Part shown: piece after piece, positions 17,690 to 57,210 of the stretch
Position numbering within the stretch: the stretch's first letter is position 1
Layout: each line of letters starts with the position of its first letter
Virus record (IMG/VR): IMGVR_UViG_3300048930_000528
Coordinates: 1-64,000 of that record
Direction: 5' to 3' (one strand)
Length of the DNA stretch: 64,000 nt
Source: a virus
Program-made: the position numbers and the translations under genes
The notes under the pieces: generated by a model
What the model was told of the DNA's origin: nothing
The model's database searches: none
Seen by the model: only the letters and a program-made list of their open reading frames with translations

Positions 17690-19300
17690 TCAACCTCGGA
17701 TGCGGATGAGTTCCTGCGTCCCCTCTTCAATGGGCGCGAGCAGGTGGGGCATCATCGCATTGGTGATGATCGGGTAGGTGAGCGCGTCGAAAACGTGCAG
17801 GTGGTCGCTGCGCACGGGAGTCAGCGCGAGGTCCGGGTCGAATGCCTCGCCGGGCTTTTGCTCCTTCGATTCGAGGAGGTTCAGCATCGCCTGGATCTTC
17901 GTGCATCCCGCCGACACCCAAAAGTCGCCGGCACTGATGGCATCCATGAGGAGCCGCGTGCGAAGCGGCACGGAGCCGGCAAACTTTGGCGCAGGCCTTA
18001 CTTCAATGCGCGGGAGGCTCAGCGCGTCCACTACGGCGTTGCCAGCGGCCTCAAGCTCCGTCACGTCGAAGGAACCCGAGCCCGCCTTGAACTGGTTGAA
18101 CGCCGAGTTGTCCGAGATCCATACGTTCTGAAAACGTCCGCCAACCTGCTGCTGCCACCACGCCAGCCGGCGGAGCACGACGGGCATGAGCACCTCGTAC
18201 TTGATCCGGCGGCGGTTGATGACGACTTCGTCGAAGGCGACCCACTTCATGCGCTGCTCGATGGGCAATCGCTGGAGCATGACGAAGGCGTTGTAGACGG
18301 CGCCAGGGTCCATCCCGATGATGATGGGGTAGCCCACGGTCGGCAGAATCCATTCCGGGCTGTCGAGCGCCGGCTTCACGTAGCGCATCGCAATCCACAC
18401 GTCCTTGAAGATCGACGTGCCGCTGGGCCTGTCCACCCACTCGCCGCGGAGCATGCGCGCCGCTTCGACGGGGTCATGCTTGTAGAGCTTCTCCAAGCCC
18501 TCGATGTAGCCCTTGGGCAAGTTGTGCCTGTTGCTGGAAACCGGAACGTGGACCCGGTGATAGTCGGGGTCCCATCGGTCAGCCTTCTCGTCGTAGGCCT
18601 CTACCATCCATACCTGATGAACCCAGTGCTTCGGGCTGTCTGGGTTGCACGCGGCGGTGTACTGCTGAGGGCCTTCGATGCCGGGCCGGCGACCGACCTG
18701 AATGGCGACGGCGTTGAGATACTCGCGGCTGTCGCAGGAGGTCAGTTCGTCCCAAAGCACAAAAGACGGCTCGAAGCCGCGCATACGGTCGCGTAGCTGT
18801 GTCGCATGCGGGCAGGAAATTAGAACGACAAGCGACCAGCCGCCGTGCCTGTTGCCTATCCAGAGGTACTCGTTGTGCTGCGAGTCGTACTTCACGTCGG
18901 TGTACTCAAGGCCCATTCCATCATCGAGTAGGTTGCCGTCGGGGTCGCGATTGCCATCCCTCCACGTCGGGAGGATTTGGTTCACGAGCTTGTCCCAAAC
19001 ACCGCCCTTCGTGGCCATTGATCGAACACGAACGCCGATCAAGCAAAGCGCGTTCGCATTCTCGTAAGCATGCCTAACTAGCTTATGGCCAAGGCTATGG
19101 GTTTTCCCGCTTCCCTTCTCGCCGTCTGCAAGAATGAATTTTGCAGGCGAATCGAATATCTCCTGCTGCTCAGGCCCCAGCATCGGGCTCCACCCGCCAT
19201 CGTCGGACGTCTTGCGTGGTTTCTTCGGTGGCGGCGGCGGAGGTTCGATGACCTCGTGAAGCGCATCCAGCGCCTCGGCGTCGATGGGTAGGCGCGGCAT
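17690..19300 (-). CDS. terL: Terminase large subunit
   Basis: Walker A GEKGSGKT, Walker B VLWDE, AACNP coupling motif, nuclease GMDPG and DHLHVFDA; start by TAATG overlap at 19300. Confidence 0.9.
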   Translation of the reverse strand: MPRLPIDAEALDALHEVIEPPPPPPKKPRKTSDDGGWSPMLGPEQQEIFDSPAKFILADGEKGSGKTHSLGHKLVRHAYENANALCLIGVRVRSMATKGGVWDKLVNQILPTWRDGNRDPDGNLLDDGMGLEYTDVKYDSQHNEYLWIGNRHGGWSLVVLISCPHATQLRDRMRGFEPSFVLWDELTSCDSREYLNAVAIQVGRRPGIEGPQQYTAACNPDSPKHWVHQVWMVEAYDEKADRWDPDYHRVHVPVSSNRHNLPKGYIEGLEKLYKHDPVEAARMLRGEWVDRPSGTSIFKDVWIAMRYVKPALDSPEWILPTVGYPIIIGMDPGAVYNAFVMLQRLPIEQRMKWVAFDEVVINRRRIKYEVLMPVVLRRLAWWQQQVGGRFQNVWISDNSAFNQFKAGSGSFDVTELEAAGNAVVDALSLPRIEVRPAPKFAGSVPLRTRLLMDAISAGDFWVSAGCTKIQAMLNLLESKEQKPGEAFDPDLALTPVRSDHLHVFDALTYPIITNAMMPHLLAPIEEGTQELIRIRG

Positions 19301-20967: not shown

Positions 20968-21208
20968 GGTCCTTGTTTTTACCTAATCAAATGCGCCGTC
21001 AAGGTTAACTGCTCTTTACTGTTCCTCGTTTTGCCTCGCCTCTCAAATTATCCACAGGCGGGGTGTTACAGTCTTTTGCTCTAGTTCTTTCCTAAATCGC
21101 TGCTGCTACGAGGCTAGCTTAATAAGCGTGTCCTTCTTAGGTTGACAGATTTGTACCATTTTGCACCCTTTTGCTTGTTCCTTCCTGTGCAGGGAACAGT
21201 TCCCGACG
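20968..21208. promoter_or_regulatory. AT-rich divergent intergenic region, candidate attP/promoters
   Basis: Adjacent to integrase; 10-bp-phased repeats ttgtacc/ttgcacc at 21151-21167; TTATCCACA at 21048-21056; TTGACA at 21142. Confidence 0.4.
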
Positions 21209-22282
21209 ATGCCTCGCCAGCTGACACTCAAGCCGAAGTTCACTCCGTCCCACCCGTCGGCGCCGTGGCGCGTGTACTTCCGCGGCAAGAGCTACTGGTT
21301 CAAGAACGAGGCCGACGCTGTGGCGAAGGCGAAGGATCTGCGTGGCGGCAAGTCGGACCTGACGCTGCGCGAGAGCGACGAGTATCGCTACGCGCGCCAG
21401 CTCCTCGGCCGGGTGCCACTGCTTGAGGCGGTCCGGTTCTACCTCGAGCGGAACCCTACCACCGATCCTACCATGACCGTCGGTGAGGCGATCACGGCGC
21501 ACCTGGCGCGGGCGACCGGCAGGCCGGACTACATGGAGAAAAAGCGATACTTCCTCGGGATTGTCTCTGAGCGGCTGGGCAACGAGAAGCTGGCCGTTGT
21601 CGGACCGGCAAGCGTGCAGGCGCTGATCGACTCGATGACGTCGAAGTGGGGGGCCAACGACGTGCTGAGGCACGCGCGCATTTTCTTCCGCGACTGCATT
21701 CGCCTCAAACTCCTCCGCGAAGATCCGACCGCGGCGTTTCAGGAGCAGAAGGTTCTGCCGAGCAAAGTCATTCTCACCGTCGAAGACACGGCGCACATCC
21801 TGAAGGTCTGCAAGGCACAGTTCCCGGAGATCCTGCCGGCAGTGGCGCTGCAACTCTTCACAGGAATCCGCACGAGTGAAGTGACCCGGTTGGAGTGGAA
21901 GGACGTGCGACTCGGCTCGCTGGTGAACATCGAGCCCCAGGTGGCGAAGACGAGCGAGCGGCGCGTGATAGACTGGTGGCCGGAGGCGCTGACGCACTGG
22001 ATGCCGGCCAAGGCAGGCGAGGGGCCTGTGACGGTTCAGCCCAAGAGCTACGAGGCGCACAAGTGGCAGCTCATCATGGTCTGCAAGGCGTCGAAGTCCG
22101 ACTTCAAGTTTGGGCAGAACGCCTTCCGCCACAGCTTCGCCAGCTTCGGGTGTGCCTACTTCCAGAACGCCGGCAAGGTCGCGCTCCTCATGGGGCACCG
22201 CGACGTGAACATGCTGTTCCGCCACTACCGCGACTACCGCACGAAGGAAGAGGCCGACCGGTACTTTGGCCTACGGCCGTAG
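21209..22282 (+). CDS. int: Tyrosine integrase
   Basis: TGIRTSE (R), AKT (K), NAFRHSF, MGH, HY catalytic motifs; N-terminal arm-binding-like domain. Confidence 0.9.
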   Translation: MPRQLTLKPKFTPSHPSAPWRVYFRGKSYWFKNEADAVAKAKDLRGGKSDLTLRESDEYRYARQLLGRVPLLEAVRFYLERNPTTDPTMTVGEAITAHLARATGRPDYMEKKRYFLGIVSERLGNEKLAVVGPASVQALIDSMTSKWGANDVLRHARIFFRDCIRLKLLREDPTAAFQEQKVLPSKVILTVEDTAHILKVCKAQFPEILPAVALQLFTGIRTSEVTRLEWKDVRLGSLVNIEPQVAKTSERRVIDWWPEALTHWMPAKAGEGPVTVQPKSYEAHKWQLIMVCKASKSDFKFGQNAFRHSFASFGCAYFQNAGKVALLMGHRDVNMLFRHYRDYRTKEEADRYFGLRP

Positions 22283-22285
22283 ATT

Positions 22286-22495
22286 TTAGCGCGCTGAGTT
22301 ACGCCCACCGTCGTAGCCGCCGTCGCCCCAGCCGCCTGACTCGCCCATGAAAAGGGTGACAACCAAGGCGAGTGCCATTCCGCCGACTACTGCGTAGCCA
22401 ACAGCCCGCCCTATGCGACTACCAATAGATGGCGCATCGAGTGCAAGGCCAACGATAGCAGGAATGATAACGAAGAGGATGATTAGGATCTTCAC
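22286..22495 (-). CDS. Small two-TM membrane protein (lysogenic conversion/exclusion candidate)
   Basis: Two hydrophobic helices, lower GC, co-oriented with repressor-like gene. Confidence 0.55.
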   Translation of the reverse strand: MKILIILFVIIPAIVGLALDAPSIGSRIGRAVGYAVVGGMALALVVTLFMGESGGWGDGGYDGGRNSAR

Positions 22496-22639
22496 GGTTT
22501 TGTCTTAATTAGTCTGCTTTTGTGACGCAATACCGTGCGTGGATTCCGGCAAGGTAATTGACTTTCGGATACATCGGCGCGCGACAAAGTGCAATTCAGA
22601 CGTGCTACGAATCGCGTTGGCGTGCATGTGCGACAAGTG

Positions 22640-22873
22640 CTACGCCGGCTTTTTACGCGAGCTCGTGCCGCTTCGACGCGAGTCCTCCTCCGAAAGAATC
22701 TGCTCTAGGTCTGAATCTGAAGACTCTTCGGCAAGGATAAGCCTTTCGACCAAGTCGGAGAGGCTATCGTAGCCGCGGCGACGCGCCAATGCGCGGCCCA
22801 TCGATTTGACCTCTGGATCGAGTGTCAGCGTGATTTTTTCACGGAGGTTTTCACCTTTTCTTGGGCGCCCCAT
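22640..22873 (-). CDS. Ribbon-helix-helix regulator (repressor candidate)
   Basis: EKITLTLD strand, helix, SLSDLVERLI helix. Confidence 0.75.
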   Translation of the reverse strand: MGRPRKGENLREKITLTLDPEVKSMGRALARRRGYDSLSDLVERLILAEESSDSDLEQILSEEDSRRSGTSSRKKPA

Positions 22874-22954
22874 CAGAGGTATTTTGTACGTACATAACCG
22901 AACGGGCTCAAGTTTTTTCTTTACGCCTTATTTTATCCGTGCGTAATTCCGCCC
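22874..22954. promoter_or_regulatory. Divergent promoter/operator region
   Basis: Palindrome TGTACGTACA 22885-22894; inverted TTACGC..GCGTAA 22921-22946. Confidence 0.55.
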
Positions 22955-23176
22955 ATGTCACGACCCCGTGTAAAAAAGGACGGCCGGAAGGTTACTTTGT
23001 ACATGGCCTCTGGGATTATCGCCATGGGCCGAAACACTGCCAAGAAGCGAGGCACCATGTCTTTGTCGAACTTGGTCGAACGCCTGATCATTGACGCCGA
23101 CGCAAAAGACAGGGCGAAGGCCGCCCGACGAATGGCAGCAGTAAGTAAGCCCGTTCAGGCCGTACATTCCGCCTAA
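22955..23176 (+). CDS. Ribbon-helix-helix regulator (Cro-position paralog)
   Basis: RKVTLYMA strand, SLSNLVERLI helix; similar to 22640..22873. Confidence 0.7.
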   Translation: MSRPRVKKDGRKVTLYMASGIIAMGRNTAKKRGTMSLSNLVERLIIDADAKDRAKAARRMAAVSKPVQAVHSA

Positions 23177-23179
23177 GCC

Positions 23180-23401
23180 ATGACCCCCCGCGGCTACATC
23201 CACGGCGACACCGCCGCCGCGAAGTACCTCGGTCTTAAGGACCGCAAGGGCCTCCGCCGCTGGCAGGACGACCCGACGCTCCCTCTGCGCGAGCTGCTCA
23301 CGCCCCGCATCATCAACGGCCACCGCTACTACAAGGTGGCCAACCTCGACCGCTTTATGGACCCGGCGCTCAACACCCCGGCGTCCGCCACCCGCAACTA
23401 A
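23180..23401 (+). CDS. Excisionase-like winged HTH protein
   Basis: AAAKYLG..LRRW..RYYKVANLDRF MerR/Xis-like pattern. Confidence 0.6.
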   Translation: MTPRGYIHGDTAAAKYLGLKDRKGLRRWQDDPTLPLRELLTPRIINGHRYYKVANLDRFMDPALNTPASATRN

Positions 23402-36990: not shown

Positions 36991-37212
36991 AGTCACTGCC
37001 ATAAGTCACTGCCACGTCTCGCGGAGCGCACCGCCCGGAAAGACGGCACTGCCAAAATCCCTATATATAAAAATACGTAGTATTTTTATAGGGAGTTTTG
37101 GCAGTACTGTCTTTCGGGTGCGCGGGTTGCACTTTTGGCAGTACCTTTTGGCAGTTTTGGCAGTATTGGCAGTAACCACCCAAAACCTCACCAAAACCAA
37201 ACCCCAAAACCC
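36991..37212. repeat. Iteron cluster around a long imperfect palindrome; candidate replication origin
   Basis: ACTGCCA at 36995, 37008, 37048 and TGGCAGT at 37099, 37136, 37149, 37158, 37167; inverted repeat 37026-37123 with AT-rich centre; CCAAAACC repeats after. Confidence 0.75.
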
Positions 37213-40926: not shown

Positions 40927-41655
40927 ATGACCGAGCGCCCCATACTATTCTCCGCCCCGATGGTGCTGGCCCTGCTGGCCGACACGAAGATGCAAACCCG
41001 GCGGATTGTGAAGCCCCAGAGGCACCCCTATGGGGAGATGCTGACGTCGGACCAAGTTGCAGCCGAGTTCCTCGGTGAGACGTGCGCAATTCGCTGCCCC
41101 TACGGCGTGCCCGGCGACCGCCTCTGGGTCAAAGAGACCTGGTCCGCTGCCCGAGGCTGGGACCACGAGAAGCCGGTGCGCATCCCCGTAGGCGCGGCGA
41201 TCCGGTACGTGGCGGACGGTGCGATGGCCGGCGACCTTGGCGACGAGAAGCTTGGCGCTGTGCAGTTTGGCCGCAATCGCCCGTCGATCTTCATGCGCCG
41301 GTGGATGAGCCGCATCACGCTTGAGATCACCGACGTTCGGGTCGAGCGGTTGCAGGACATCAGCGAGGCGGACGCCTTGGCCGAGGGCGTGAAGCCCTTG
41401 GATTCCTACGCCCACTACAACATCTCTTCCGACGACGGCACGTGCGTGGCCGTCTCCGAGGACTACATCCACGGCATACCCAAGGTCGGCGACACGTGGC
41501 ACGGACGCAAGGTGGCGCACGTTCAGCACGTGCCGCAGCGAATGCTGCTCAGTGCCCGCGAGCAATACCGTGCGCTGTGGAACAGCATCAACGGGGCCGG
41601 ATCGTGGAACGAGAATCCCTGGGTTTGGGCGATCACCTTCCGCAAACTGTCATGA
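40927..41655 (+). CDS. ASCH/PUA-like conserved phage protein
   Basis: ERPILFSAPMV..TRR, CPYG.PGDRLWVKE, PSIFM, VERLQDISE, NPWVW. Confidence 0.75.
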   Translation: MTERPILFSAPMVLALLADTKMQTRRIVKPQRHPYGEMLTSDQVAAEFLGETCAIRCPYGVPGDRLWVKETWSAARGWDHEKPVRIPVGAAIRYVADGAMAGDLGDEKLGAVQFGRNRPSIFMRRWMSRITLEITDVRVERLQDISEADALAEGVKPLDSYAHYNISSDDGTCVAVSEDYIHGIPKVGDTWHGRKVAHVQHVPQRMLLSAREQYRALWNSINGAGSWNENPWVWAITFRKLS

Positions 41656-42575
41656 GCATCCGCACCAACAGCTACTTCAGCGGCGCCGGCCTGATGGACC
41701 TCGGCCTGCAACGTGGCGGGCTGCATGTCCAGGAGAGCTACGAGATCGATGAGACCTGCTGCGAAACGTTGCGTCAGAACTTCGACCACAAGGTGGTGCA
41801 GATGGACGTATCCAAGAAGCTGGTCTTCGATGAATCCGAATGCGACGCCATGGTGGCAACGTTCCCGTGCACCAAGTACTCGACCGCGGCCGACATCAAC
41901 GGCGCGAGGACGGGTGACGAACTCTTCCTGCACTTCTTCCGGCATGTGGCTATCCGCCGGCCGGAAGTGTACGCCGTGGAGAACGTGCCCGGCATGCGAA
42001 AGTTTCCCGTGGTGATGGAGGCGCTGACCAGGCTGCCCGACTACTACGTCAACGTCTTCTGTCCGGTTAGCAGCACCAACTGGCTGCCGCAGAAGCGTGA
42101 CCGACTGATCATCATCGGATCACGCAAGCGGTTCGGCTGGCGACCGCCCGAGGCGGGGCGCGTGCTGACGCTGGCTGAGATAATCGAAGAGAATCCGCAG
42201 GTCGAGATACCGGACTACGTGTACGCCAGGATCAACGGCAAGTACCGGGACCAGCCGATCGTGAGCGACCCTGCCAAGGGTGACGTGGCGCCGACGTGTG
42301 TTGCACACTACGCCAAGGATCTCGGGACACGCCTCGTGGTGGATCGCCGGTATCCGCATGGCGTGCGTCCGTATTCGGTGAGGGAGTACGCCCGGCTGCA
42401 AGGCCTGCCAGACACGTTCACTTTCGCTGGCACGAGTCGAGACGCTTACCGCATGATCGGCAACGGCGTATCCGTGCCCGTGGGTGAGTGGCTGGGCCGT
42501 GAGATTGTCCGCTACTTTGGGCGAGGCGCGAGGCCTCAGCCGCTCAGGCCGTTCCAGTTGGATCTTCTGTCATGA
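41652..42575 (+). CDS. C5 cytosine DNA methyltransferase
   Basis: FSGAG, FPC, ENV, Q.R.R, EYARLQG, IGNGV motifs. Confidence 0.9.
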   Translation: MSIRTNSYFSGAGLMDLGLQRGGLHVQESYEIDETCCETLRQNFDHKVVQMDVSKKLVFDESECDAMVATFPCTKYSTAADINGARTGDELFLHFFRHVAIRRPEVYAVENVPGMRKFPVVMEALTRLPDYYVNVFCPVSSTNWLPQKRDRLIIIGSRKRFGWRPPEAGRVLTLAEIIEENPQVEIPDYVYARINGKYRDQPIVSDPAKGDVAPTCVAHYAKDLGTRLVVDRRYPHGVRPYSVREYARLQGLPDTFTFAGTSRDAYRMIGNGVSVPVGEWLGREIVRYFGRGARPQPLRPFQLDLLS

Positions 42576-42872
42576 CCTTCCTCAAAATCAACATCCTGCC
42601 CGAGATGAACTGCGGCGAGCGCGTCTTCCGCTGGGAGGTGCACGGCCATCGCCGGGGCAACGTCCTGGGCGGCGGCTACTGCGCCAAGGTGGAAGACGCG
42701 TGTGCGGACGCCATCGCGTGGGTGAAAAACCAGCCGTGGCACGTGCTGCTGGACCAGAACAAGAACCAATGAAAACCATCCTGCTTCGCGCCGTGCTGCA
42801 CGGCCTGTTCTACATCGGCTTCGGCCTGTTCGCCACGCTCGTCTTCGGCGGGTGGTGGCTGGGGTTTTGACC

Positions 42873-43399
42873 ATGAAATACATCATCGAATACGTCCGGC
42901 CCTCTTGCATGGAGGGCTACGAGAACTACGACCAAGCCCCATGTGTATTCTTCCGGCACTACGAAGCCGTGGACGAGGAGGACGCAGTGTCTAAGGCCAA
43001 AGCCTTTGCCGAGAAGGATGGCGACGTGGTCATCTCGCATGTCAGCACCTACAATTCCTACAAGCAATTCCTCAGCACCGTCCTCGACGACCCGGACTGC
43101 GCGCTGGATCAGGTCAAGTAACCAAAGCCGCCATGAAATACTTAATCGAATACGTCTACATCGAAGACGTCATCAAGCACGGCGACTGCTCTGTGCATGT
43201 CCGCCACCACGAGGCCGAGTCAGAAGTCGATGCACGTGAGCGCGCCATCCAAGTGCTCGGCGACGACGTGTGCATCTGCTCCGTCACTACCGAGGAGCAG
43301 TACCGGCGGTTTACCGAAGAGTCACTGTCCAACCCAATGAACTCACTCGATGCGCTCGCTGCCGAACGCGGCATTGACGAGGGGGAGGACGACCAATGA
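42873..43399 (+). CDS. Tandem paralogous small genes (42873..43121, 43133..43399)
   Basis: MKYIIEYV..RHYEA..DA vs MKYLIEYV..RHHEA..DA. Confidence 0.7.
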
Positions 43400-45480: not shown

Positions 45481-46478
45481 ACACCACCACCCAACCACCC
45501 AAGACCAAGCCGACCCGCATGGATGCACAGGAGGTCATGGACAGCATCGCCACCCAGCTTCCCGAGATCCTTGGCCACATCCACGCCGACGGCGACTGGC
45601 TGTGGTACACAGGCCCGTCGCTCCAGTCCTCGCCAGCCACCCGTCTGGTGCTCAAGGACATCGGCTTCCGGTTCGCGCCCCGCGGCCACGTCATGCCTGA
45701 AGGCAACGGCATCGGATCGTGGGGCCACTCGTGCCTCCGGCCCACGCCGCGCCGCCGCAAAGGCGACCGCCGTGCGGCCACTGCCGACACGCCCGAAGCC
45801 CATGCCGTCGATCCCACGGCGGCACTCGCTGCCCTCTTTGCGTAACCCACGAAACGAACTGACAGCCTCAACCTTTCCATCATCATGAGTACCATGCCCG
45901 CACCCGACATTGCCGCGGTCTTTACCGCCGCCCAAGCCAAGCTCCTCCACCTCGCCGTCGGCCTGCGTGACCGCGAGCCGCTCGCCATGCAGCGTATAAA
46001 CGCTTTCGTCCTCAACAAGACCGGCGCCAAGTTCAACGAGTACCTCACCGGCCCGACGCCCGTCGTCGAGAAGCTCGCCGTCGTGCAGGAAATCACCGCC
46101 ATCGTTGAGTCCGGCGACCTAAGCAAGCTGCCCTCGGCGCCCAACGGCCAAGCCTCGGCCCCGCCGACTGCGCCTCGCACCACCCCGCCGCCGGCCCCGC
46201 CCAAGGTCGAGCAGCCCAAGCAGCCCGAGGTCAAGCAGCCCGAGCCGCCTCCGGCCCCGCCCGCCCCGCCTGCCGTCGACGTGGACGACCTCGCTGACGA
46301 CGACATCGACGCCGACGAACTGGCCGGCGCCATCCAGACCATCGTCAAGGTGGCGGCCAAGCGCAAGGAACCCGCCGCCCCGCCGGCCCCGGCCTTCACC
46401 GAAGCTGACGTGCGCCGCATCATCCGGCACGAACTGGCCGATGCCATGGAGAAGATCGCCAAGGCGCTGCGTGCGTAA
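45477..46478 (+). CDS. Two hypothetical genes (45477..45845, 45885..46478)
   Basis: Coupled ORFs with phage codon usage. Confidence 0.6.
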
Positions 46479-46541
46479 CACCGGCAGTCTGCCACCGGAG
46501 GGGCGAAGCCCCGCAGGTTGGCAGTGATGCCTTGGTTCGAC
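46473..46541 (-). mobile_element. attC-like site A
   Basis: Minus strand GTCGAAC-caag..ctgccaacc..ggtggcag..-GTTACGC with central GGGGC/GCCCC hairpin. Confidence 0.75.
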
Positions 46542-47068: not shown

Positions 47069-47167
47069 GTCGAACGCACAAGCTGACCTATGACCACCGC
47101 GCCCATGACTACCGAATCCACAACAGACGCCGACGCGGTGGGCATTAAGTCCAGCGCCTTGTTCGGC
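47069..47167 (-). mobile_element. attC-like site B
   Basis: Minus strand GCCGAAC-aaggc-gctggac..ccaccgcg/cgcggtgg..gtcagc-ttgtgc-GTTCGAC. Confidence 0.85.
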
Positions 47168-47725
47168 GTGATTTACGCGGACCCGCCGTGGCGGTATGGC
47201 TTCTCTCAATCGGACTCACGCGCCATCGAGTCGCAATATCCGACAATGACCGACGAGGAAATCTGTGCTATCAAGGTGCCTGCTGCCAAGGATGCCGTGC
47301 TCTACCTGTGGGCGGTGGCTCCACGGCTCGCCGCAGGGCTGCGCGTCATGGAAGCGTGGGGATTCGACTACAAGACTTGTGCTGTGTGGGACAAAGAAAA
47401 GGTGGGCATGGGCTACTGGTGGCGCGGACAGCATGAAATCCTCATGGTCGGAACTCGCGGGAAGTTCTCGCCGCCTCCGCAAGCACTCCGCAAGTCGAGC
47501 GTGATTCGCTGCCCGCGTGGACGGCACAGCGCGAAGCCTGACCAAGTGCGCGACTGGATCGGGGAATGGTATCCCGACGTGCCCAAGCTGGAAATGTTCT
47601 CTCGGCTAAAACGACCGGGCTGGGAGGTCTTTGGAAATCAGGTCGAGTATGACCTGCTAAGCGGGGATTTTTCTTCGCCGAACGTCGCGGGTCAGACACG
47701 ACCCGCCGAAAACTCCAACCTGTAA
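47090..47725 (+). CDS. MT-A70 family N6-adenine methyltransferase (cassette)
   Basis: IYADPPW, YLWA, WGFDYKT, HSAKP, LEMFSR. Confidence 0.9.
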   Translation: MTTAPMTTESTTDADAVGIKSSALFGVIYADPPWRYGFSQSDSRAIESQYPTMTDEEICAIKVPAAKDAVLYLWAVAPRLAAGLRVMEAWGFDYKTCAVWDKEKVGMGYWWRGQHEILMVGTRGKFSPPPQALRKSSVIRCPRGRHSAKPDQVRDWIGEWYPDVPKLEMFSRLKRPGWEVFGNQVEYDLLSGDFSSPNVAGQTRPAENSNL

Positions 47726-47807
47726 CTCCCATGAAAAACCAAAATCCAACTGTAGTCTCTAGCCCGCAGGATCAGTGCGGGTCGTTGTCTGGGAACGCTG
47801 GTTCGGC
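47677..47807 (-). mobile_element. attC-like site C
   Basis: Plus-strand arms cagacacgacccgc / gcgggtcgt[t]gtctg between GCCGAAC and GTTCGGC. Confidence 0.85.
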
Positions 47808-52626: not shown

Positions 52627-52656
52627 TTGACATTGCCAAATCGCCGGATGTAACCT
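52627..52656 (+). promoter_or_regulatory. Sigma70-like promoter upstream of second recombinase
   Basis: TTGACA-18 nt-TAACCT, 11 nt before ATG. Confidence 0.55.
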
Positions 52657-52667
52657 CGGATTCCAGC

Positions 52668-53669
52668 ATGCCCACGACAAAGAAAGCCGCAGGACTCAAG
52701 ATCAAGGCGATGGACTCCACCAAGGTGACGCCGGCGGCGATCCGCGCAGCCAAGAAGATCCTTCGGGCCGCCGAAGAGTCGGGCATGCAGGATGCAATCC
52801 TCGCTGCGCTCATGCAGCGGAAGACCGTACCCGTGAAGCAGGCCTTGGCCGAGTGGCACCTATGGCGGAAGGCGAACTCGTCAGCGTCCACGCTCCGCAC
52901 CAACCGGCTGGCACTAGATCAGTTCTTCGATGGGCTCGAGGCCGCAAACTGGCCGGTGTCAAAAATCACGATCCAGCACATTGACGCATGGGTTAACAAA
53001 GACGACGCCTGCAAGCGGGCCACCCGCGAGGCAAAGCTCGCCGCCATCCGATCGTTCTACAAGTTCGTCACCGCGAATGCCTATTGCCAGACCAACCCGG
53101 CGCAGCTGGTGCATGTTCGCATTCGCGACATGACGCACGCTCAGCTGGAGCGCACCGTGCGCGAGCCCATCACCGAGCACGAGTACCGGCATATCATGGC
53201 CAACACCGAAGGCTTTTGGAAATGGGCAACGGCGATCAGCTACTGGGCGGGGCTGCGCATGAGCGACGTGTTCGCACTCCAGTGGGCTCAGATCATGCCC
53301 ACCGAGATCGTAGCCTGGGCGAAAAAAGACGGCGACCGGCTAGTGCTTCCACTCAACCACCCGCTCATCGGCGGAGGGGAGTTGGTGCCTGTGCTGTTCG
53401 AGGTATTGAGTAATCGCCAAGACGATACATACTGCTTCCCCGATCAGCATCGCGAGATGGCCGACATCGAGAAGCGTTCCAAGTTCTCGGTCTACTATAC
53501 ACGCCTGCTTGCCGGGCTAGGCATTGAAGGCAAGAGCTTCCATTCGCTGCGGCATGCGTTTGCCACCCGGCTCGCCAACGCAGGGGTGACACCTGAGCAG
53601 ATCGGGCGGTGGATGGGGCACAGTTCGACGCGCATCACCGAGGGGTACATCCACCGCGGCAAGCGATGA
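52668..53669 (+). CDS. Tyrosine recombinase (Xer/Int-like, no IntI insertion visible)
   Basis: GLRMSD, AKKDG, FHSLRH, MGHSS, GY. Confidence 0.9.
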   Translation: MPTTKKAAGLKIKAMDSTKVTPAAIRAAKKILRAAEESGMQDAILAALMQRKTVPVKQALAEWHLWRKANSSASTLRTNRLALDQFFDGLEAANWPVSKITIQHIDAWVNKDDACKRATREAKLAAIRSFYKFVTANAYCQTNPAQLVHVRIRDMTHAQLERTVREPITEHEYRHIMANTEGFWKWATAISYWAGLRMSDVFALQWAQIMPTEIVAWAKKDGDRLVLPLNHPLIGGGELVPVLFEVLSNRQDDTYCFPDQHREMADIEKRSKFSVYYTRLLAGLGIEGKSFHSLRHAFATRLANAGVTPEQIGRWMGHSSTRITEGYIHRGKR

Positions 53670-53709
53670 TCGGTAAACCATCATCAATCATCGAATCCCT
53701 GATCGTCCA

Positions 53710-54188
53710 ATGAGTAACCCACAGAACGAACTGACGCCGTCCGCTGGCCCGAATTGCGCTGTGGCGTCTGGTTCGCCTCCGGGGCTCTACAACCTATACG
53801 TCCGCCACACCGATGGGCGCACAAAGAAACTGACGGGCTACGCGATGACACATCACGAGTGCTGCGTGATGAAGAGCAAACTAAGCGAATGGACGCAGGC
53901 TCGCACACTGCTCGTAAAGGAGACGAAATGAAACACGACCCAGACCACTACCTCACGCAGCCGATGGACAATCAGGAGGCGGCGCACAATCGCCGCGTGG
54001 CCGTGACGGCCGAGAACGTCGCCGCGTGTGCGCAAGCCATCCGCGACCTCGACCGCATCACGCCGCGCCCGCTCACCGCCGAAGACCAAGCGCGTGCCGT
54101 GCTCACGTTCTTGGCGAACACCAAGGTGACCGATGCGCAGCCCAAGGCGAACGACGCCGGACCGGGTAGCAATGCGCATTCGGTCTAG
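53710..54188 (+). CDS. Two cassette-borne hypothetical genes (53710..53931, 53928..54188)
   Basis: Between GTTCGCC (53771) and GGCGAAC (54113); ATGA overlap. Confidence 0.6.
53727..53777 (-). mobile_element. Truncated attC-like site E
   Basis: Minus strand GGCGAAC-cagac-gccacagcgcaa arm (same as site I arm); partner arm degenerate. Confidence 0.6.
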
Positions 54189-54201
54189 CGAATGGTTCAG
54201 C
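54113..54201 (-). mobile_element. attC-like site F
   Basis: Arms gaccgatgcgca / tgcgcat[t]cggtc between GGCGAAC and GTTCAGC. Confidence 0.88.
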
Positions 54202-54209
54202 CCTCTTTT

Positions 54210-54482
54210 ATGCCCTCACCAATCGAAAGAATGATCGACGCCGCGACCGGCTACACGCCGCCGCCAGCGCCGAAGAAACGCACGCTCCCGACTGCCGAAG
54301 AAAAGCAGATAGCGACCGATGCCGGAAACGACGTCATCTGGTATATCGACGCGCAGTATCCCGCGATGTGGGACGGCGTGCCGAAGTCAGCGCGGACCAG
54401 CGTGAAAAACGCCGTCTACAACCGCGTGATCTTAATCTTGCTGAACGCCAAGATCAGCAACGCGGGGACGAAAACAGAATGA
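54210..54482 (+). CDS. Hypothetical protein (cassette)
   Basis: Between GTTCAGC and GCTGAAC; stop lies in attC G. Confidence 0.65.
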   Translation: MPSPIERMIDAATGYTPPPAPKKRTLPTAEEKQIATDAGNDVIWYIDAQYPAMWDGVPKSARTSVKNAVYNRVILILLNAKISNAGTKTE

Positions 54483-54569
54483 CTCTATGAGCACGAAAAT
54501 CGAAGACAAACCCATAGCGAGCGCCGGAGCGGACAGCTCCCCGCGTTGCGCTGTATCGCCTGGTTCGAC
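54440..54569 (-). mobile_element. attC-like site G
   Basis: Arms gatcagcaacgcgggga / tccccgcgtt[gc]gctg[t]atc between GCTGAAC and GTTCGAC. Confidence 0.88.
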
Positions 54570-54771
54570 GATTGAAACGACCGAACGCAAGGTGATGGTC
54601 GCGCTCTGCGGACTGTGCATCGCCGTCTTCTGCGCGGCTCTTCTCGGCATCGCTTTCTACGTGCATGTCGTCGCCGGGCTATTCGCTCTCGCGCTCATCG
54701 CGTGGTGGCTCGGCTCATCGATGGCCGAAGTGCTCAAGGAAACTCGCGAGCGTGATTCGTCGAACGACTAG
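54487..54771 (+). CDS. Two-TM membrane protein (cassette)
   Basis: Starts inside attC G loop; long hydrophobic segment. Confidence 0.7.
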   Translation: MSTKIEDKPIASAGADSSPRCAVSPGSTIETTERKVMVALCGLCIAVFCAALLGIAFYVHVVAGLFALALIAWWLGSSMAEVLKETRERDSSND

Positions 54772-54854
54772 GTATGCCAGCCCTACCCGCCATCGATGTT
54801 GATTCGCCAGTAACTGCCCGCCGGGTAGGGATTGGCATGACCGACTTGTTCGGG
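54759..54854 (-). mobile_element. attC-like site H
   Basis: Arms ggtatgcca.ccctacccg / cgggtaggg..tggcat[g]acc between GTCGAAC and GTTCGGG. Confidence 0.88.
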
Positions 54855-55331
54855 GTTGTGGACGTGGTGCCGAGTGACATCGTGCTGACCCCGGAACCAA
54901 TCGCGCAAGCCGTGGTGGAACGCTTCAAACCATCTGGCCGCGTGCTCGATCCGTGCAAGGGAGATGGTGCCTTCCTGAAGTTCATGCCTGGTGCTGAGTG
55001 GTGCGAGATTCGCGAAGGCCGATGCTTCTACGACTGGAAAGAGCCGGTGGACTGGATCGTCTCGAATCCACCTTACAGCGTCTTCTCGGACTTCCTTCGG
55101 CACAGCTTCACGGTGGCGGAAAACATCGTCTATCTGATCCCCGTCAACAAGGCGTTCAACTCTGACAAGATGATGCGCGAAATCTGGTCATGGGGAGGCG
55201 TGAAAACCATCTTCGTGATTGGCTCCGGTGGATCGCTGAACTTCCCAATCGGCTTCTGCATAGGAGCTGTTCACTTCGTGCGCGGCTATCGGGGCGGCGC
55301 GAATGTGGAATTTTATACCCCGAACACCTAG
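54774..55331 (+). CDS. Small N6-adenine DNA methyltransferase (cassette)
   Basis: TP..IA, VLDPCKGDGAF, WIVSNPPYS. Confidence 0.85.
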   Translation: MPALPAIDVDSPVTARRVGIGMTDLFGVVDVVPSDIVLTPEPIAQAVVERFKPSGRVLDPCKGDGAFLKFMPGAEWCEIREGRCFYDWKEPVDWIVSNPPYSVFSDFLRHSFTVAENIVYLIPVNKAFNSDKMMREIWSWGGVKTIFVIGSGGSLNFPIGFCIGAVHFVRGYRGGANVEFYTPNT

Positions 55332-55412
55332 CTCAGACATGGCTGGCTCTCCCTCAACTCTCGAACACTTGGCGGCCCCGCGCCAGCCATTGTCTGTGGC
55401 GTCTGGTTCGCT
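55319..55412 (-). mobile_element. attC-like site I
   Basis: Arms cagacatggctggc / gccagccat[t]gtctg between CCCGAAC and GTTCGCT. Confidence 0.88.
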
Positions 55413-56130
55413 GCTTCTTTGGAACGCGGACTGCATAGAAGTGCTGCCACAAATCACGGCGGCGGCGGTTATCACCGATCCGCCCTATGGCATCAACGAT
55501 GCAGCTTTCGATTCGGGGCCACGCGAAGGAAAACGCAAGGGAGGCGATAATACTTGGCATCCGGCAAGCGATTGGGATGCGGAGATAAAGCCGGAATGGT
55601 GCGCTGCGGTATGCGCTGCCGCGCCGGTGGTCGCATGGATGGGCCACTGGAGAAAACGCGGCATGGTAGAGGCAGCGATGCCCCACAAACTGCGCGCGGA
55701 AATAGTGTGGGCAAAAGACTGCCATGTAGGCCCGCCATGTCCGGTGGCAATGCAGGATGAGCGCGTGTGGCTATTCTCGCGCGAAGGCATCACGGCTAAG
55801 CGATTTGACACGACCGTGTGGAGCGTTCCGATAATCCCGACGTGGGCACATAAGCACCACAAAAACGAGAAGCCGGTCGCGCTGATGGCGCGAGCGATCT
55901 ACCTGCTGACATCCGAAGGTGATACCGTGCTCGATCCATTCATGGGGAGCGGCACGACGGCAATCGCGTGCATCCGGACGGGCCGCAAATTCATCGGGGT
56001 GGAGCGCGACCCCGCGCACTTCCAAACGGCAGTCGAGCGCATCCGCCGAGAACTGGCACAGGGCGACCTGTTTTTGCCAGCGAACACTGAGGTCAGAGAA
56101 TCGCGCCCTGACCCGACCAAACAACCCTGA
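55339..56130 (+). CDS. N4/N6 beta-class DNA methyltransferase (cassette)
   Basis: ITDPPYG, H..EKP, VLDPFMGSGTT, FIGVE. Confidence 0.9.
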   Translation: MAGSPSTLEHLAAPRQPLSVASGSLLLWNADCIEVLPQITAAAVITDPPYGINDAAFDSGPREGKRKGGDNTWHPASDWDAEIKPEWCAAVCAAAPVVAWMGHWRKRGMVEAAMPHKLRAEIVWAKDCHVGPPCPVAMQDERVWLFSREGITAKRFDTTVWSVPIIPTWAHKHHKNEKPVALMARAIYLLTSEGDTVLDPFMGSGTTAIACIRTGRKFIGVERDPAHFQTAVERIRRELAQGDLFLPANTEVRESRPDPTKQP

Positions 56131-56187
56131 ACCTTCAACGAACAATCAGAGCGGCTGCACGCGATTCTCTGCACCGTCTGGTTGGGA
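56079..56187 (-). mobile_element. attC-like site J
   Basis: Arms ggtcagagaatcgcg / cgcgattctctg[c]acc between AGCGAAC and GTTGGGA. Confidence 0.88.
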
Positions 56188-56467: not shown

Positions 56468-56580
56468 TCCCAACGAAAAAGGTGAGCCGCGCTCGCCGAA
56501 GAAAGGACAATGACATGAGCGGAGAAAAGACATCCGAAGACGTGACGGCTGCGAGCGTTGGCTCTACCGACGGGTTCGGC
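56468..56580 (-). mobile_element. attC-like site K
   Basis: Minus strand GCCGAAC-ccgtc-ggt[a]gagcc[a]acgctcgc..gcgagcgcggctcacc-tttttc-GTTGGGA. Confidence 0.9.
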
Positions 56581-56838
56581 GATGGCTGCGACCACTGTGA
56601 CACCTTCGGAGGGCAGAAGACCTACGCGAACCAAGCGTGCCTGCCGCTCAACGGTCGCGTCGTGTGCGTGGACTGGTGCATCCATCAAATCGTGGCGGCG
56701 CTCAACGCCGGCGGCGTGCGCACGACTGCGTGCTGCTGCGGTCATGGGCGAATGCCGGGCCGCATCGACCTTGAGGACGGCCGCATACTCACGATCTCTT
56801 CGCCGAACAAGGCGGATATGCCGACGTGCAGCAAATAA
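56515..56838 (+). CDS. Cys-rich hypothetical protein (cassette)
   Basis: VDWCI..LN..G..T..CCCGHG motif; starts in attC K. Confidence 0.7.
   Translation: MSGEKTSEDVTAASVGSTDGFGDGCDHCDTFGGQKTYANQACLPLNGRVVCVDWCIHQIVAALNAGGVRTTACCCGHGRMPGRIDLEDGRILTISSPNKADMPTCSK
56802..56829 (-). mobile_element. attI-like terminal site of array 2
   Basis: Minus strand GCACGTCGGCATATCCGCCTT-GTTCGGC; core present, no partner arm; resembles 48003-48028. Confidence 0.5.
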
Positions 56839-56847
56839 GCGGAACTC

Positions 56848-57210
56848 ATGCAGGCCTTACTTCGTTACCCCAAACGTCAGCGCAGCGCCAAAGCCAGGGA
56901 GTGGGGTGCTCGTGGCAATGCGTCCCAAGCCGTCGCCAGGCTCACGCGAGACCTGCCATGGGAGACCATCGTAGCTCGCGCACGCGACGACGAACGCGGA
57001 AAGCTGACTCGCCATGGATGCACCTACTTCGGCGACGGCCGCATTGTGCATTGGGAAATTCGCCGATCCATCGCCGGCCGCCACAACCAGTTCGATGTGA
57101 TTGCCGACGGCATTCTCGTCCGAACCTATGGCCAGCGTCGTCTTCAGTCGTGGCTTAGGATGGTGCCACCTATCAAAGCCCCATCGCCTGCAGCGCAGCG
57201 CGCCGCCTGA
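56848..57210 (+). CDS. Basic hypothetical protein
   Basis: 120-aa ORF converging on the giant gene. Confidence 0.5.
   Translation: MQALLRYPKRQRSAKAREWGARGNASQAVARLTRDLPWETIVARARDDERGKLTRHGCTYFGDGRIVHWEIRRSIAGRHNQFDVIADGILVRTYGQRRLQSWLRMVPPIKAPSPAAQRAA

Follow-up and report, generated by a model that had tools for sequence, protein, structure and literature searches.

Locus and phage genome

The stretch of DNA analysed here (the window) comprises 64,000 nucleotides (nt), the first 64 kb of virus record IMGVR_UViG_3300048930_000528, a phage genome of 72,049 bp with direct terminal repeats that is estimated to be 100% complete. Two arrays of integron attC sites lie in the window, the second immediately downstream of a gene for a tyrosine recombinase (52668–53669). 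The present analysis concerns these arrays, their cassettes and the enzyme that drives them, for which the neighbouring recombinase and the integron integrase (IntI) were the candidates. The genome has a G+C content of about 62% and encodes a large terminase, virion proteins, two helicase-like proteins, a DnaB-like helicase, a RecT-like protein, an exonuclease and RusA. Among the features listed in Table 1 are three of the four DNA methyltransferase genes of the 72-kb phage, all three inside integron cassettes; the fourth lies at 41442–42575. A related record of 73.8 kb (G006) is collinear with the phage over most of its length, with protein identities of 25–76%.

attC arrays in the window

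Reading of the boxes resolved ten sites, 51–131 nt long, and one lone box. Three sites form array 1 (46.47–47.81 kb), and seven sites with the lone box form array 2 (53.69–56.81 kb). In integrons, the start of a cassette is complementary to the R'' box of its own attC site, and hence the boxes of neighbouring sites pair. This rule is found in the window, where in eight of nine junctions the right box of one site and the left box of the next are exact reverse complements (7/7 positions), the ninth junction matching at 6/7, while the two boxes of one site pair at only 4–6 of seven. Such complementarity between neighbours arises because crossover takes place inside the box and cassettes are inserted singly. 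Six box sequences are in use, namely GTTCGAC, GTTCGGC, GTTCGCC, GTTCAGC, GTTCGGG and GTTGGGA. Site A begins 21 nt past the recombinase stop codon, and its box reads AAT in place of AAC. The lone box takes the position that the attI/first-cassette junction has in the host integron L155, and it is probably the "attI-like" end described in an earlier note on this DNA. It closes the far end of array 2, which places the recombinase at the opposite end, as that note had stated.

A covariance model (R1) of 28 training sites, 27 of them from other sources, was run unfiltered on both strands of the window. The 36 matches at E ≤ 10 include eight at E ≤ 0.002, one of which is a training sequence; all eight lie on the plus strand, within 46.47–47.17 kb or 54.11–56.58 kb. 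An unrelated hairpin at 37035–37119 gave a chance match (E 0.006). Known attC sites are about 57–141 nt long, a range that accommodates the window sites, with site E slightly below it at 51 nt. Clusters of attC sites lacking integron integrases (CALINs) are defined by at least two attC sites close together with no intI nearby, according to the available text of Qi et al. (2023; PMC9892861). The phage shows this arrangement twice, with three sites in one cluster, seven and the lone box in the other, and no IntI in its 72-kb genome.

Table 1. Features of the attC arrays, their cassette genes and the two recombinases. Positions refer to the window; the strand of an attC site is that of its inferred canonical polarity.
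Feature	Position	Strand	Evidence
attC site 1, array 1, 69 nt, boxes GCGTAAC ... GTTCGAC (plus-strand reading)	46473–46541	−	R1 E 0.00039; pairs 7/7 with site 2
attC site 2, 99 nt, contains ATG (47090) of the MT-A70-like methylase gene	47069–47167	−	R1 E 6.4e-11; right box pairs 7/7 with site 3
Cassette gene, MT-A70-like DNA methyltransferase, DPPW motif	47090–47725	+	phrog_359, E 8.1e-56
attC site 3, 131 nt, last of array 1, weak match	47677–47807	−	R1 E 0.96; nhmmer 3' half E 0.21; left box GCCGAAC 7/7 with site 2
Promoter-like pair TTGACA (52628–52633) / TAACCT (52652–52657), 18-nt spacing	52628–52657	+	Weak; missing from promoter scan list
Tyrosine recombinase, 333 amino acids, lambda-Int/Xer type, not IntI	52668–53669	+	PF00589, PF02899, phrog_1, fold matches
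attC site A, 88 nt, degenerate left half, 3' half is the 22-nt repeat TTGCGCTGTGGCGTCTGGTTCG	53690–53777	−	R1 E 0.54; right box 7/7 with site B
attC site B, 89 nt	54113–54201	−	R1 E 0.00086; box pairs 7/7 on both sides
attC site C, 130 nt	54440–54569	−	R1 E 0.00022
attC site C2, 96 nt, overlaps start of the methylase gene 54774–55331	54759–54854	−	R1 E 4.3e-06
Cassette gene, probable N6-adenine DNA methyltransferase, NPPY motif	54774–55331	+	Pfam N6_Mtase 18.1 bits, under cut-off 20.4
attC site D, 94 nt, holds one methylase stop codon and the next ATG (55339)	55319–55412	−	R1 E 1.3e-13, but in training alignment
Cassette gene, N6/N4 DNA methyltransferase, DPPY motif	55339–56130	+	PF01555, 88.9 bits
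attC site E, 51 nt, short terminal structure	56137–56187	−	R1 match 56079–56186, E 0.0017; GTTGGGA pairs 7/7 with site F TCCCAAC
attC site F, 113 nt	56468–56580	−	R1 E 7.1e-09
Lone box GCCGAAC closing array 2	56802–56808	−	Exact reverse complement of site F right box
Second tyrosine recombinase, 373 amino acids	21161–22282	+	30.6 bits; fails IntI model

Site family and folded structure

Metagenomes scanned for copies yielded 32 contigs, and 401 genomes of the candidate host phylum yielded three true copies. The collection drawn from phage, metagenome and bacterial loci comprises 49 distinct full-length sites (87–132 nt), all of the form GCCSAAC, 3 nt, NN, AGNTCAGCCAYG, a variable hairpin, CGTTGYGCTGTRGCGYCTG and GTTSGGC. 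The 5' half of the site first became visible in the bacterial and metagenome copies, so that a repeat of about 22 nt seen in the window is merely the 3' half of a palindrome. The family boxes are GCCSAAC and GTTSGGC, and the GCCCAAC/GTTGGGC version fits exactly the attC consensus of R'' RYYYAAC and R' GTTRRRY with conserved AAC/GTT triplets (PMC9892861, in its available text).

The structure drawn on the 28-site alignment has two variable stems besides its R box (AAC/GTT) and an L box in which some bases are bulged. Partners pair in 78.8% of cells against 30–40% when they are slid, a measure inflated by the structure having been taken from one alignment member. Independent of that inflation, changes on both sides of a pair occur in 108 cells against 26–48 in slid controls. 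The covariation score of 0.282 compares with at most 0.083 and was reached by none of 500 shuffles. At the base of the variable stem, 11 of 11 pairs change on both sides. The AAC and GTT triplets pair in 97.6% of cells and the L-box helix in 96.3%, the latter with C-G to G-C swaps in seven sequences. Bulged T columns, a 5-nt versus 1-nt asymmetry, inner L''/L' boxes and a variable terminal structure are all found in the sites. IntI recombines attC through its folded bottom strand, and in the minus-strand reading the extra unpaired bases fall on the R''-L'' arm, which we take to be their place in attC structures. At the other loci, boxes of neighbouring sites were perfect at the four variable positions in 15 of 24 pairs and those of one site in 2 of 24; some of the misses among the 24 neighbour pairs skip an undetected site. 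Altogether, box complementarity and compensatory change identify the window arrays as genuine integron attC arrays.

Link to bacterial integrons

IntI was searched for with model TIGR02249, which has a curated cut-off of 265 bits. Three bacterial genomes carry the site: G402 with two IntI proteins (420 and 372.9 bits), G114 with one (372.1 bits) and G204 with none above the cut-off. Sites lie within 1–2.3 kb of all three intI genes and of a partial intI-like match, and several intI-adjacent sites outside the training set still score E 1e-17 to 1e-22. Locus L155 has a full integron layout, with intI, a lone GCCGAAC junction box, a 163-codon open reading frame (ORF) on the other strand, a 103-nt site and the next ORF; its cassette ORFs diverge from intI, and a site follows each. 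In the L151 array, ATG-initiated ORFs lie on the strand opposite to the repeat as first written. One-directional arrays beside intI and an attI junction are thus present in bacteria (L155, L156, L158, L159), while the phage arrays have no intI. Of 81 genomes sampled from the candidate host phylum, 21 encode an IntI that exceeds the cut-off. These relationships assign the phage sites, by their sequences, to the attC family of Verrucomicrobiota chromosomal integrons.

As a separate observation, the two full IntI genes (420 and 373 bits) of G402 (loci L155, L158 and L151) lie on one Verrucomicrobiota chromosome. About 600 kb away from the nearer of them this genome has another array, with four or more sites, which amounts to a cluster without integrase in the host itself.

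The recombinase at 52668–53669

The protein encoded at 52668–53669 matches PF00589 (Phage_integrase) at 71.5 bits, also matches the SAM-like N-terminal domain PF02899, and falls into phrog_1 ("integrase", E 1.3e-38). By sequence, the closest protein of solved structure is XerD (E 3.8e-10), which aligns collinearly across residues 65–329; the recombinase itself lies far under the curated cut-offs for XerC, XerD and XerA. In the 31 aligned family members, residues R197, K220, H292, R295, H318 and Y327 never vary, and they make up the full catalytic set. An AlphaFold model with a mean predicted local distance difference test score of 87.5 has the two-domain tyrosine recombinase fold. The catalytic residues and the fold that characterize tyrosine recombinases and phage integrases (PF00589) are both present, and the protein is the complete recombinase that the earlier note had reported. 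The model is closest to lambda integrase (1z1b, E 5.4e-11), Tn1549 integrase and XerA, with Vibrio IntI4 in rank 13. An arm-binding-type N-terminal strand motif occurs in most of the 31 family members and is missing from this protein.

The gene ends with the stop codon 53667–53669, and the next ATG follows at 53710 on the same strand after a gap of 40 bp, in agreement with the distance from array 2 and the shared orientation with the cassette genes given previously. The promoter claimed for it fared less well: the two hexamers are present (Table 1), while a promoter scan of 47–58 kb found three promoter-like sites against 3.3 expected by chance and did not list this pair, leaving the promoter itself unproven.

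Homologues of the 52668-type recombinase number 69, of which 33 have 29–52% identity and come from contigs as long as 76 kb, and 30 viral loci carrying it were recovered. At least 11 of 16 mapped loci share a gene order of a large helicase-like ORF, the integrase, an interval of 0–2.7 kb and a convergent giant ORF. In all five related records, three of them estimated complete, this recombinase is the sole PF00589 match. A further 16 bacterial contigs carry relatives, most being labelled as Verrucomicrobiota or Opitutae assemblies. G006 is without the 3.5-kb stretch between integrase and giant gene. A related-locus search from a single protein query returned nothing. Neither an attachment site nor an adjoining tRNA was found for the integrase, the tRNA scan returned no tRNA gene, and among 22 integrase loci one had a tRNA gene, in a non-adjacent position. 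The conserved setting marks the recombinase as a phage backbone gene that appears to be vertically inherited in a widespread phage group, and from its family and conservation its role is presumably integration and excision.

Search for IntI and the second recombinase

TIGR02249 scored the 52668–53669 recombinase at 31.9 bits as a protein and 21.2 bits in the genome scan, and the recombinase at 21161–22282 at 26.2 and 19.9 bits, all far from 265. The 420-bit Verrucomicrobiota IntI holds a 24-column insertion (..LPGALESKYPNAGKEFGWQW..) at which the 52668–53669 protein and two relatives have a gap, and the distance of 72 residues between K220 and H292 equals that in the collinear XerD alignment. 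The earlier note had seen no IntI-specific segment in either recombinase and no IntI at all, and these statements hold. The TIGR02249 scan found none in the whole 72,049-bp genome, including the part beyond the window, and the two recombinases are its only tyrosine recombinases.

The recombinase module at 21–23 kb is missing from G006, the collinear record and closest relative, and the segment is probably an acquired lysogeny module. In this phage, the arm-binding N-terminus of the 52668–53669 integrase would have been lost and a second integrase module gained at 21 kb. A PDB sequence search with the 21-kb recombinase gave no match. Two divergent small ORFs beside it (22283–23180) look by eye like ribbon-helix-helix regulators, one with a sub-cutoff match to DUF6364, and a small membrane protein is encoded there as well. 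Furthermore, locus L104 of the phage record G004 encodes on its minus strand (18007–19128) a 373-residue protein with 27% identity to the 21-kb recombinase (BLASTP, E 2e-12) and a retained R..RH..RHY pattern. Pfam misses this recombinase of G004, and Pfam-based counts of "integrase-free" phages may therefore be too high. Likewise, the PF00589 search of five attC-bearing records yielded no recombinase, which is in part a failure of sensitivity, given that BLASTP found the divergent one of G004.

Cassette genes and their reversed orientation

The boxes delimit about nine cassettes of 319–818 nt. The bacterial ORFs of L155 and L151 oppose the orientation in which the repeat was first written; its canonical polarity is consequently the reverse complement, the minus strand in the phage. 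On this basis the canonical R''-to-R' polarity of the phage sites is placed on the minus strand, and the cassette genes lie on the plus strand. The ATG of a cassette gene forms part of the conserved L box or of the variable stem, and translation is predicted to run through the site, both in the window and in the other phage records examined. Genes of the bacterial arrays are canonical in direction and start a few bases past GTTSGGC. The available text of PMC9892861 contains no description of a reversed cassette orientation with the start inside attC.

A tentative proposal, which we put forward with some doubt, is that phages of Verrucomicrobiota-like hosts share a pool of such "reverse" cassettes, in which attC would serve as a portable 5' leader and methylases and small early genes would be traded through the host IntI. 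If so, the pool would turn the host integron machinery into a gene-exchange service for phage counter-defence genes.

Cassette movement between contigs

Contigs of four runs, labelled compost, wastewater, aquatic and freshwater metagenomes, were compared with the window. Locus L140 is 100% identical to window 53754–53988 (235 nt) with unrelated flanks, and L130 (93%) and L132 (77%) match from the same start base; none of the recovered stretches of these three loci contains recombinase or backbone genes. The 30 foreign letters ahead of 53754 are identical in three runs (X1, X4, X8). In four contigs from three runs homology is lost after 54119/54120, and each continues with a different L-box-like sequence; of two further contig matches, one starts at 55323 and the other stops at 55327. 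Since the left box of site B finishes at 54119 and that of site D at 55325, the breaks fall within 1–3 nt of AA|C (G|TT on the other strand). This pattern suggests that unrelated phages swap cassettes at the canonical crossover point, and the 235-nt identity is a sequence-level sign of such movement.

L140 shows a further feature about 230–520 nt downstream of the element. There, on the minus strand, lies a 20-codon leader, MKHDPDHYLTQPMDNQEAAH, identical to the leader of window ORF 53928–54188; it runs into what looks by eye like the C-terminal half of an N6/N4 methylase. The joint marks a second exchange point, at window 53988, where no site is recognisable.

Other readings of the 22-nt repeat

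Before full palindromes were seen, the elements were read as a repeat of about 22 nt (TTGYGCTGTGGCGTCTGGTTCG) with four co-oriented copies downstream of the recombinase, 775–843 nt apart, and a fifth at 47.8 kb; no copies beyond these five were found on either strand. Copies lie 30–60 nt inside ATG-initiated ORFs, and the repeat also occurs in other phage records without a PF00589 match, among them G004, where it marks five to eight successive small genes. The reading as a direct-repeat "joint" other than attC, serving regulation or recombination, was overturned by the complete bacterial and metagenome copies, the earlier tests having been too narrow. Local alignment had found an inverted partner for the 26-nt 3' half in only 2 of 12 copies, 11 of 30 copies had GAAC upstream, the background being 0.25, the inverted-repeat scan showed no arrays, and array 1 escaped a direct-repeat scan of 31–48.1 kb. 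A sigma-54 or sigma-70 promoter was dropped on inspection by eye and on the promoter scan, a tRNA-like element because no tRNA was found, and a known RNA family because Rfam gave no match and only chance microRNA-hairpin matches appeared. A conserved N-terminal peptide (..CAVASGS..) was rejected since the copies fall in any of three frames or in none, and a core-type integrase site because there is no dyad. A literature search with the letters of the motif returned nothing.

Which enzyme drives the arrays

IntI appears to be the natural partner of this site family, and for a phage that has none it would have to come from the host. The reading that we consider probable is that the phage carries two attC clusters without an IntI of its own, that their cassettes were built and exchanged by IntI-type crossover, most likely by host IntI, and that the neighbouring recombinase is uninvolved. 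Cassettes would be assembled and swapped among unrelated phages by crossover at the conserved AAC/GTT box. The most likely enzyme would be the IntI of the bacterium under infection, with single-stranded DNA of the replicating phage as its substrate, and the 52668–53669 recombinase would take no part in cassette movement. We infer both the action of host IntI on the phage sites and the function of the phage integrase. Of the two drivers proposed in the earlier note, the borrowed host IntI is thereby favoured, on the strength of the shared attC family close to intI, the occurrence of IntI in the candidate host phylum, and the box and crossover signatures; the new enzyme is disfavoured. No IntI above the cut-off was found in any of the six phage records with attC sites.

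Several observations weigh against this reading. All cassette genes are antisense to the canonical cassette orientation, unlike those of the host arrays. Left halves of several phage sites are degenerate, sites A (E 0.54) and 3 (E 0.96) being the weakest, and some such sites may no longer recombine. Single-sequence folding energies of the sites are no better than those of shuffles (z −0.06 to −1.5). No joints between sites were seen in the four runs, of which contigs only were compared and large parts of 52.6–57.3 kb were uncovered. The candidate host phylum follows only from the labels of metagenome-assembled genomes with recombinase relatives and from the three Verrucomicrobiota genomes with the site. 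Two phages, this one and G006, combine the recombinase with attC sites, and in each an array abuts the recombinase gene, which could reflect more than a shared plastic region. In addition, breaks occur at 53754, 53739 and 53774–53776, the edges of the conserved 22-nt part, and these could stem from homologous recombination by the phage RecT-like protein and exonuclease.

The last point leads to an alternative, which we regard as unlikely, in which the arrays are relics. IntI would have built them once, perhaps in a bacterial integron or an ancestral phage, and homologous recombination at the 22–37-nt conserved part would now shuffle them, driven by the RecT-like protein and exonuclease in the manner of the promoter early stem-loop (PeSL) units of T4-type phages. 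The phage does encode a RecT-like annealing protein, an exonuclease and RusA; the break at the element edge 53754 recurs in L130, L132, L140 and runs X1, X4 and X8; a 37-nt island, 53739–53776, is found in X2, X8, L117 and L118; and degenerate left halves would suit relics. However, the breaks at 54119/54120 and 55323/55327 fall at the 7-nt variable box without long homology, and homologous exchange within the conserved element would not keep exact 7/7 complementarity in eight of nine junctions across six box sequences.

That either the 52668–53669 or the 21-kb recombinase is a new attC-processing enzyme replacing IntI in phages is very improbable. The complete catalytic set of the 52668–53669 protein, the array starting 21 nt past its stop codon, the three sites just upstream of the orthologue in G006 and the distant 21-kb-type relative in the attC-bearing G004 speak for such a role. 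Against it stands co-occurrence: of the 46 loci (616 kb together) that encode the 52668-type recombinase, 45 are without attC sites, and L006 alone has them. Conversely, the family is present in two of the six attC-bearing records and lacking from four, a 21-kb-type relative is present in two (this phage and G004), and neither type was detected in G005 (estimated complete) or in G002 and G003 (both incomplete). The 52668–53669 protein is without the segment seen in the IntI that adjoins this attC family, lies at the array end opposite the attI-like junction rather than in the position of intI, and is a backbone gene, the sole PF00589 match in five of five related records. The sites also show no dyad of the core-integrase type, 74–417 of 500 shuffles doing as well. 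Equally improbable is a spread of selfish or regulatory palindromes, such as miniature inverted-repeat transposable elements, repetitive extragenic palindromic elements or 5' leader RNAs, into gene junctions of phages and bacteria. Sequence is conserved as well as structure, the phage copies sit in the 5' part of genes with a conserved ATG, and no Rfam family matches, all of which speak for such elements. The bacterial copies nevertheless form one-directional arrays beside intI with one short ORF per unit, and neighbour-box complementarity is specific to integron cassettes and unexpected for inserted palindromes. The reading with host IntI as the driver would leave the phage with real cassettes and without any enzyme of its own to move them, the neighbouring candidate being an ordinary integrase.

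Other features of the genome

A giant gene of 2,940 codons runs on the minus strand from window position 57173 to genome position 65995 and contains an HEAGH motif; its orthologue adjoins the integrase in most related phages. The giant gene had no match in PHROGs, and of seven other proteins queried with it six were blank. The terminal repeat is present three times (genome 1–130, 71707–71830 and 71923–72049), the extra copy lying 216 nt ahead of the end copy. Within a 1.2-kb non-coding gap of lower G+C that separates divergent gene blocks, window 37035–37165 has TTTTGGCAGTA in three copies and an inverted repeat of 23 nt with 87% complementarity, and it looks like an operator or origin region. 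Tandem paralogous small genes lie at 42852–43121 and 43133–43399, with starts that are 92% identical (CCATGAAATAC.TCGAATACGTC).

Comparison with known systems

Clusters of attC sites without integrase, together with methylase cassettes, are already known from phages, and the present phage is a further member of this group. According to the available text of Qi et al. (2023; PMC9892861), 17 attC clusters without integrase were found in phages, five orphan DNA methyltransferase cassettes including N6_N4_Mtase were among their cargo, and recombination by IntI1 succeeded at five of six phage attC sites tried. The likeness extends to attC arrays without intI, methyltransferase cargo and a bacterial IntI proposed as the driver. 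Differences from that account are the ten sites in two arrays that match Verrucomicrobiota integrons, the genes antisense to attC polarity that start inside attC, and the identical cassettes in unrelated phage contigs. The three methyltransferase cassettes fit the idea that phages collect anti-restriction genes via integron cassettes.

The lambda-type integrases and Xer proteins share with the 52668–53669 protein the R-K-H-R-H-Y set and the SAM-like core-binding and catalytic domains, while the protein differs in having no arm-binding N-terminal strands. The PeSL units are promoter-terminator units of T4-type phages exchanged by homologous recombination (Arbiol et al., 2010; PMC2839356, in its available text). 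There, as here, the small accessory genes of plastic regions are bordered by short conserved motifs at which modules are exchanged between phages, whereas the elements of the present phage are attC-type palindromes with box complementarity that are linked to intI in bacteria. A further parallel is given by the sedentary chromosomal integrons of Verrucomicrobiota (L155, L156, L158, L159), which have the same boxes, L-box sequence, stem architecture and cassette rule; they differ in carrying intI at one array end and ORFs in canonical direction, in contrast to the phage with its reversed ORFs and no intI. The large and clean set of ten sites takes phage-borne attC clusters into a host phylum that has been little studied.

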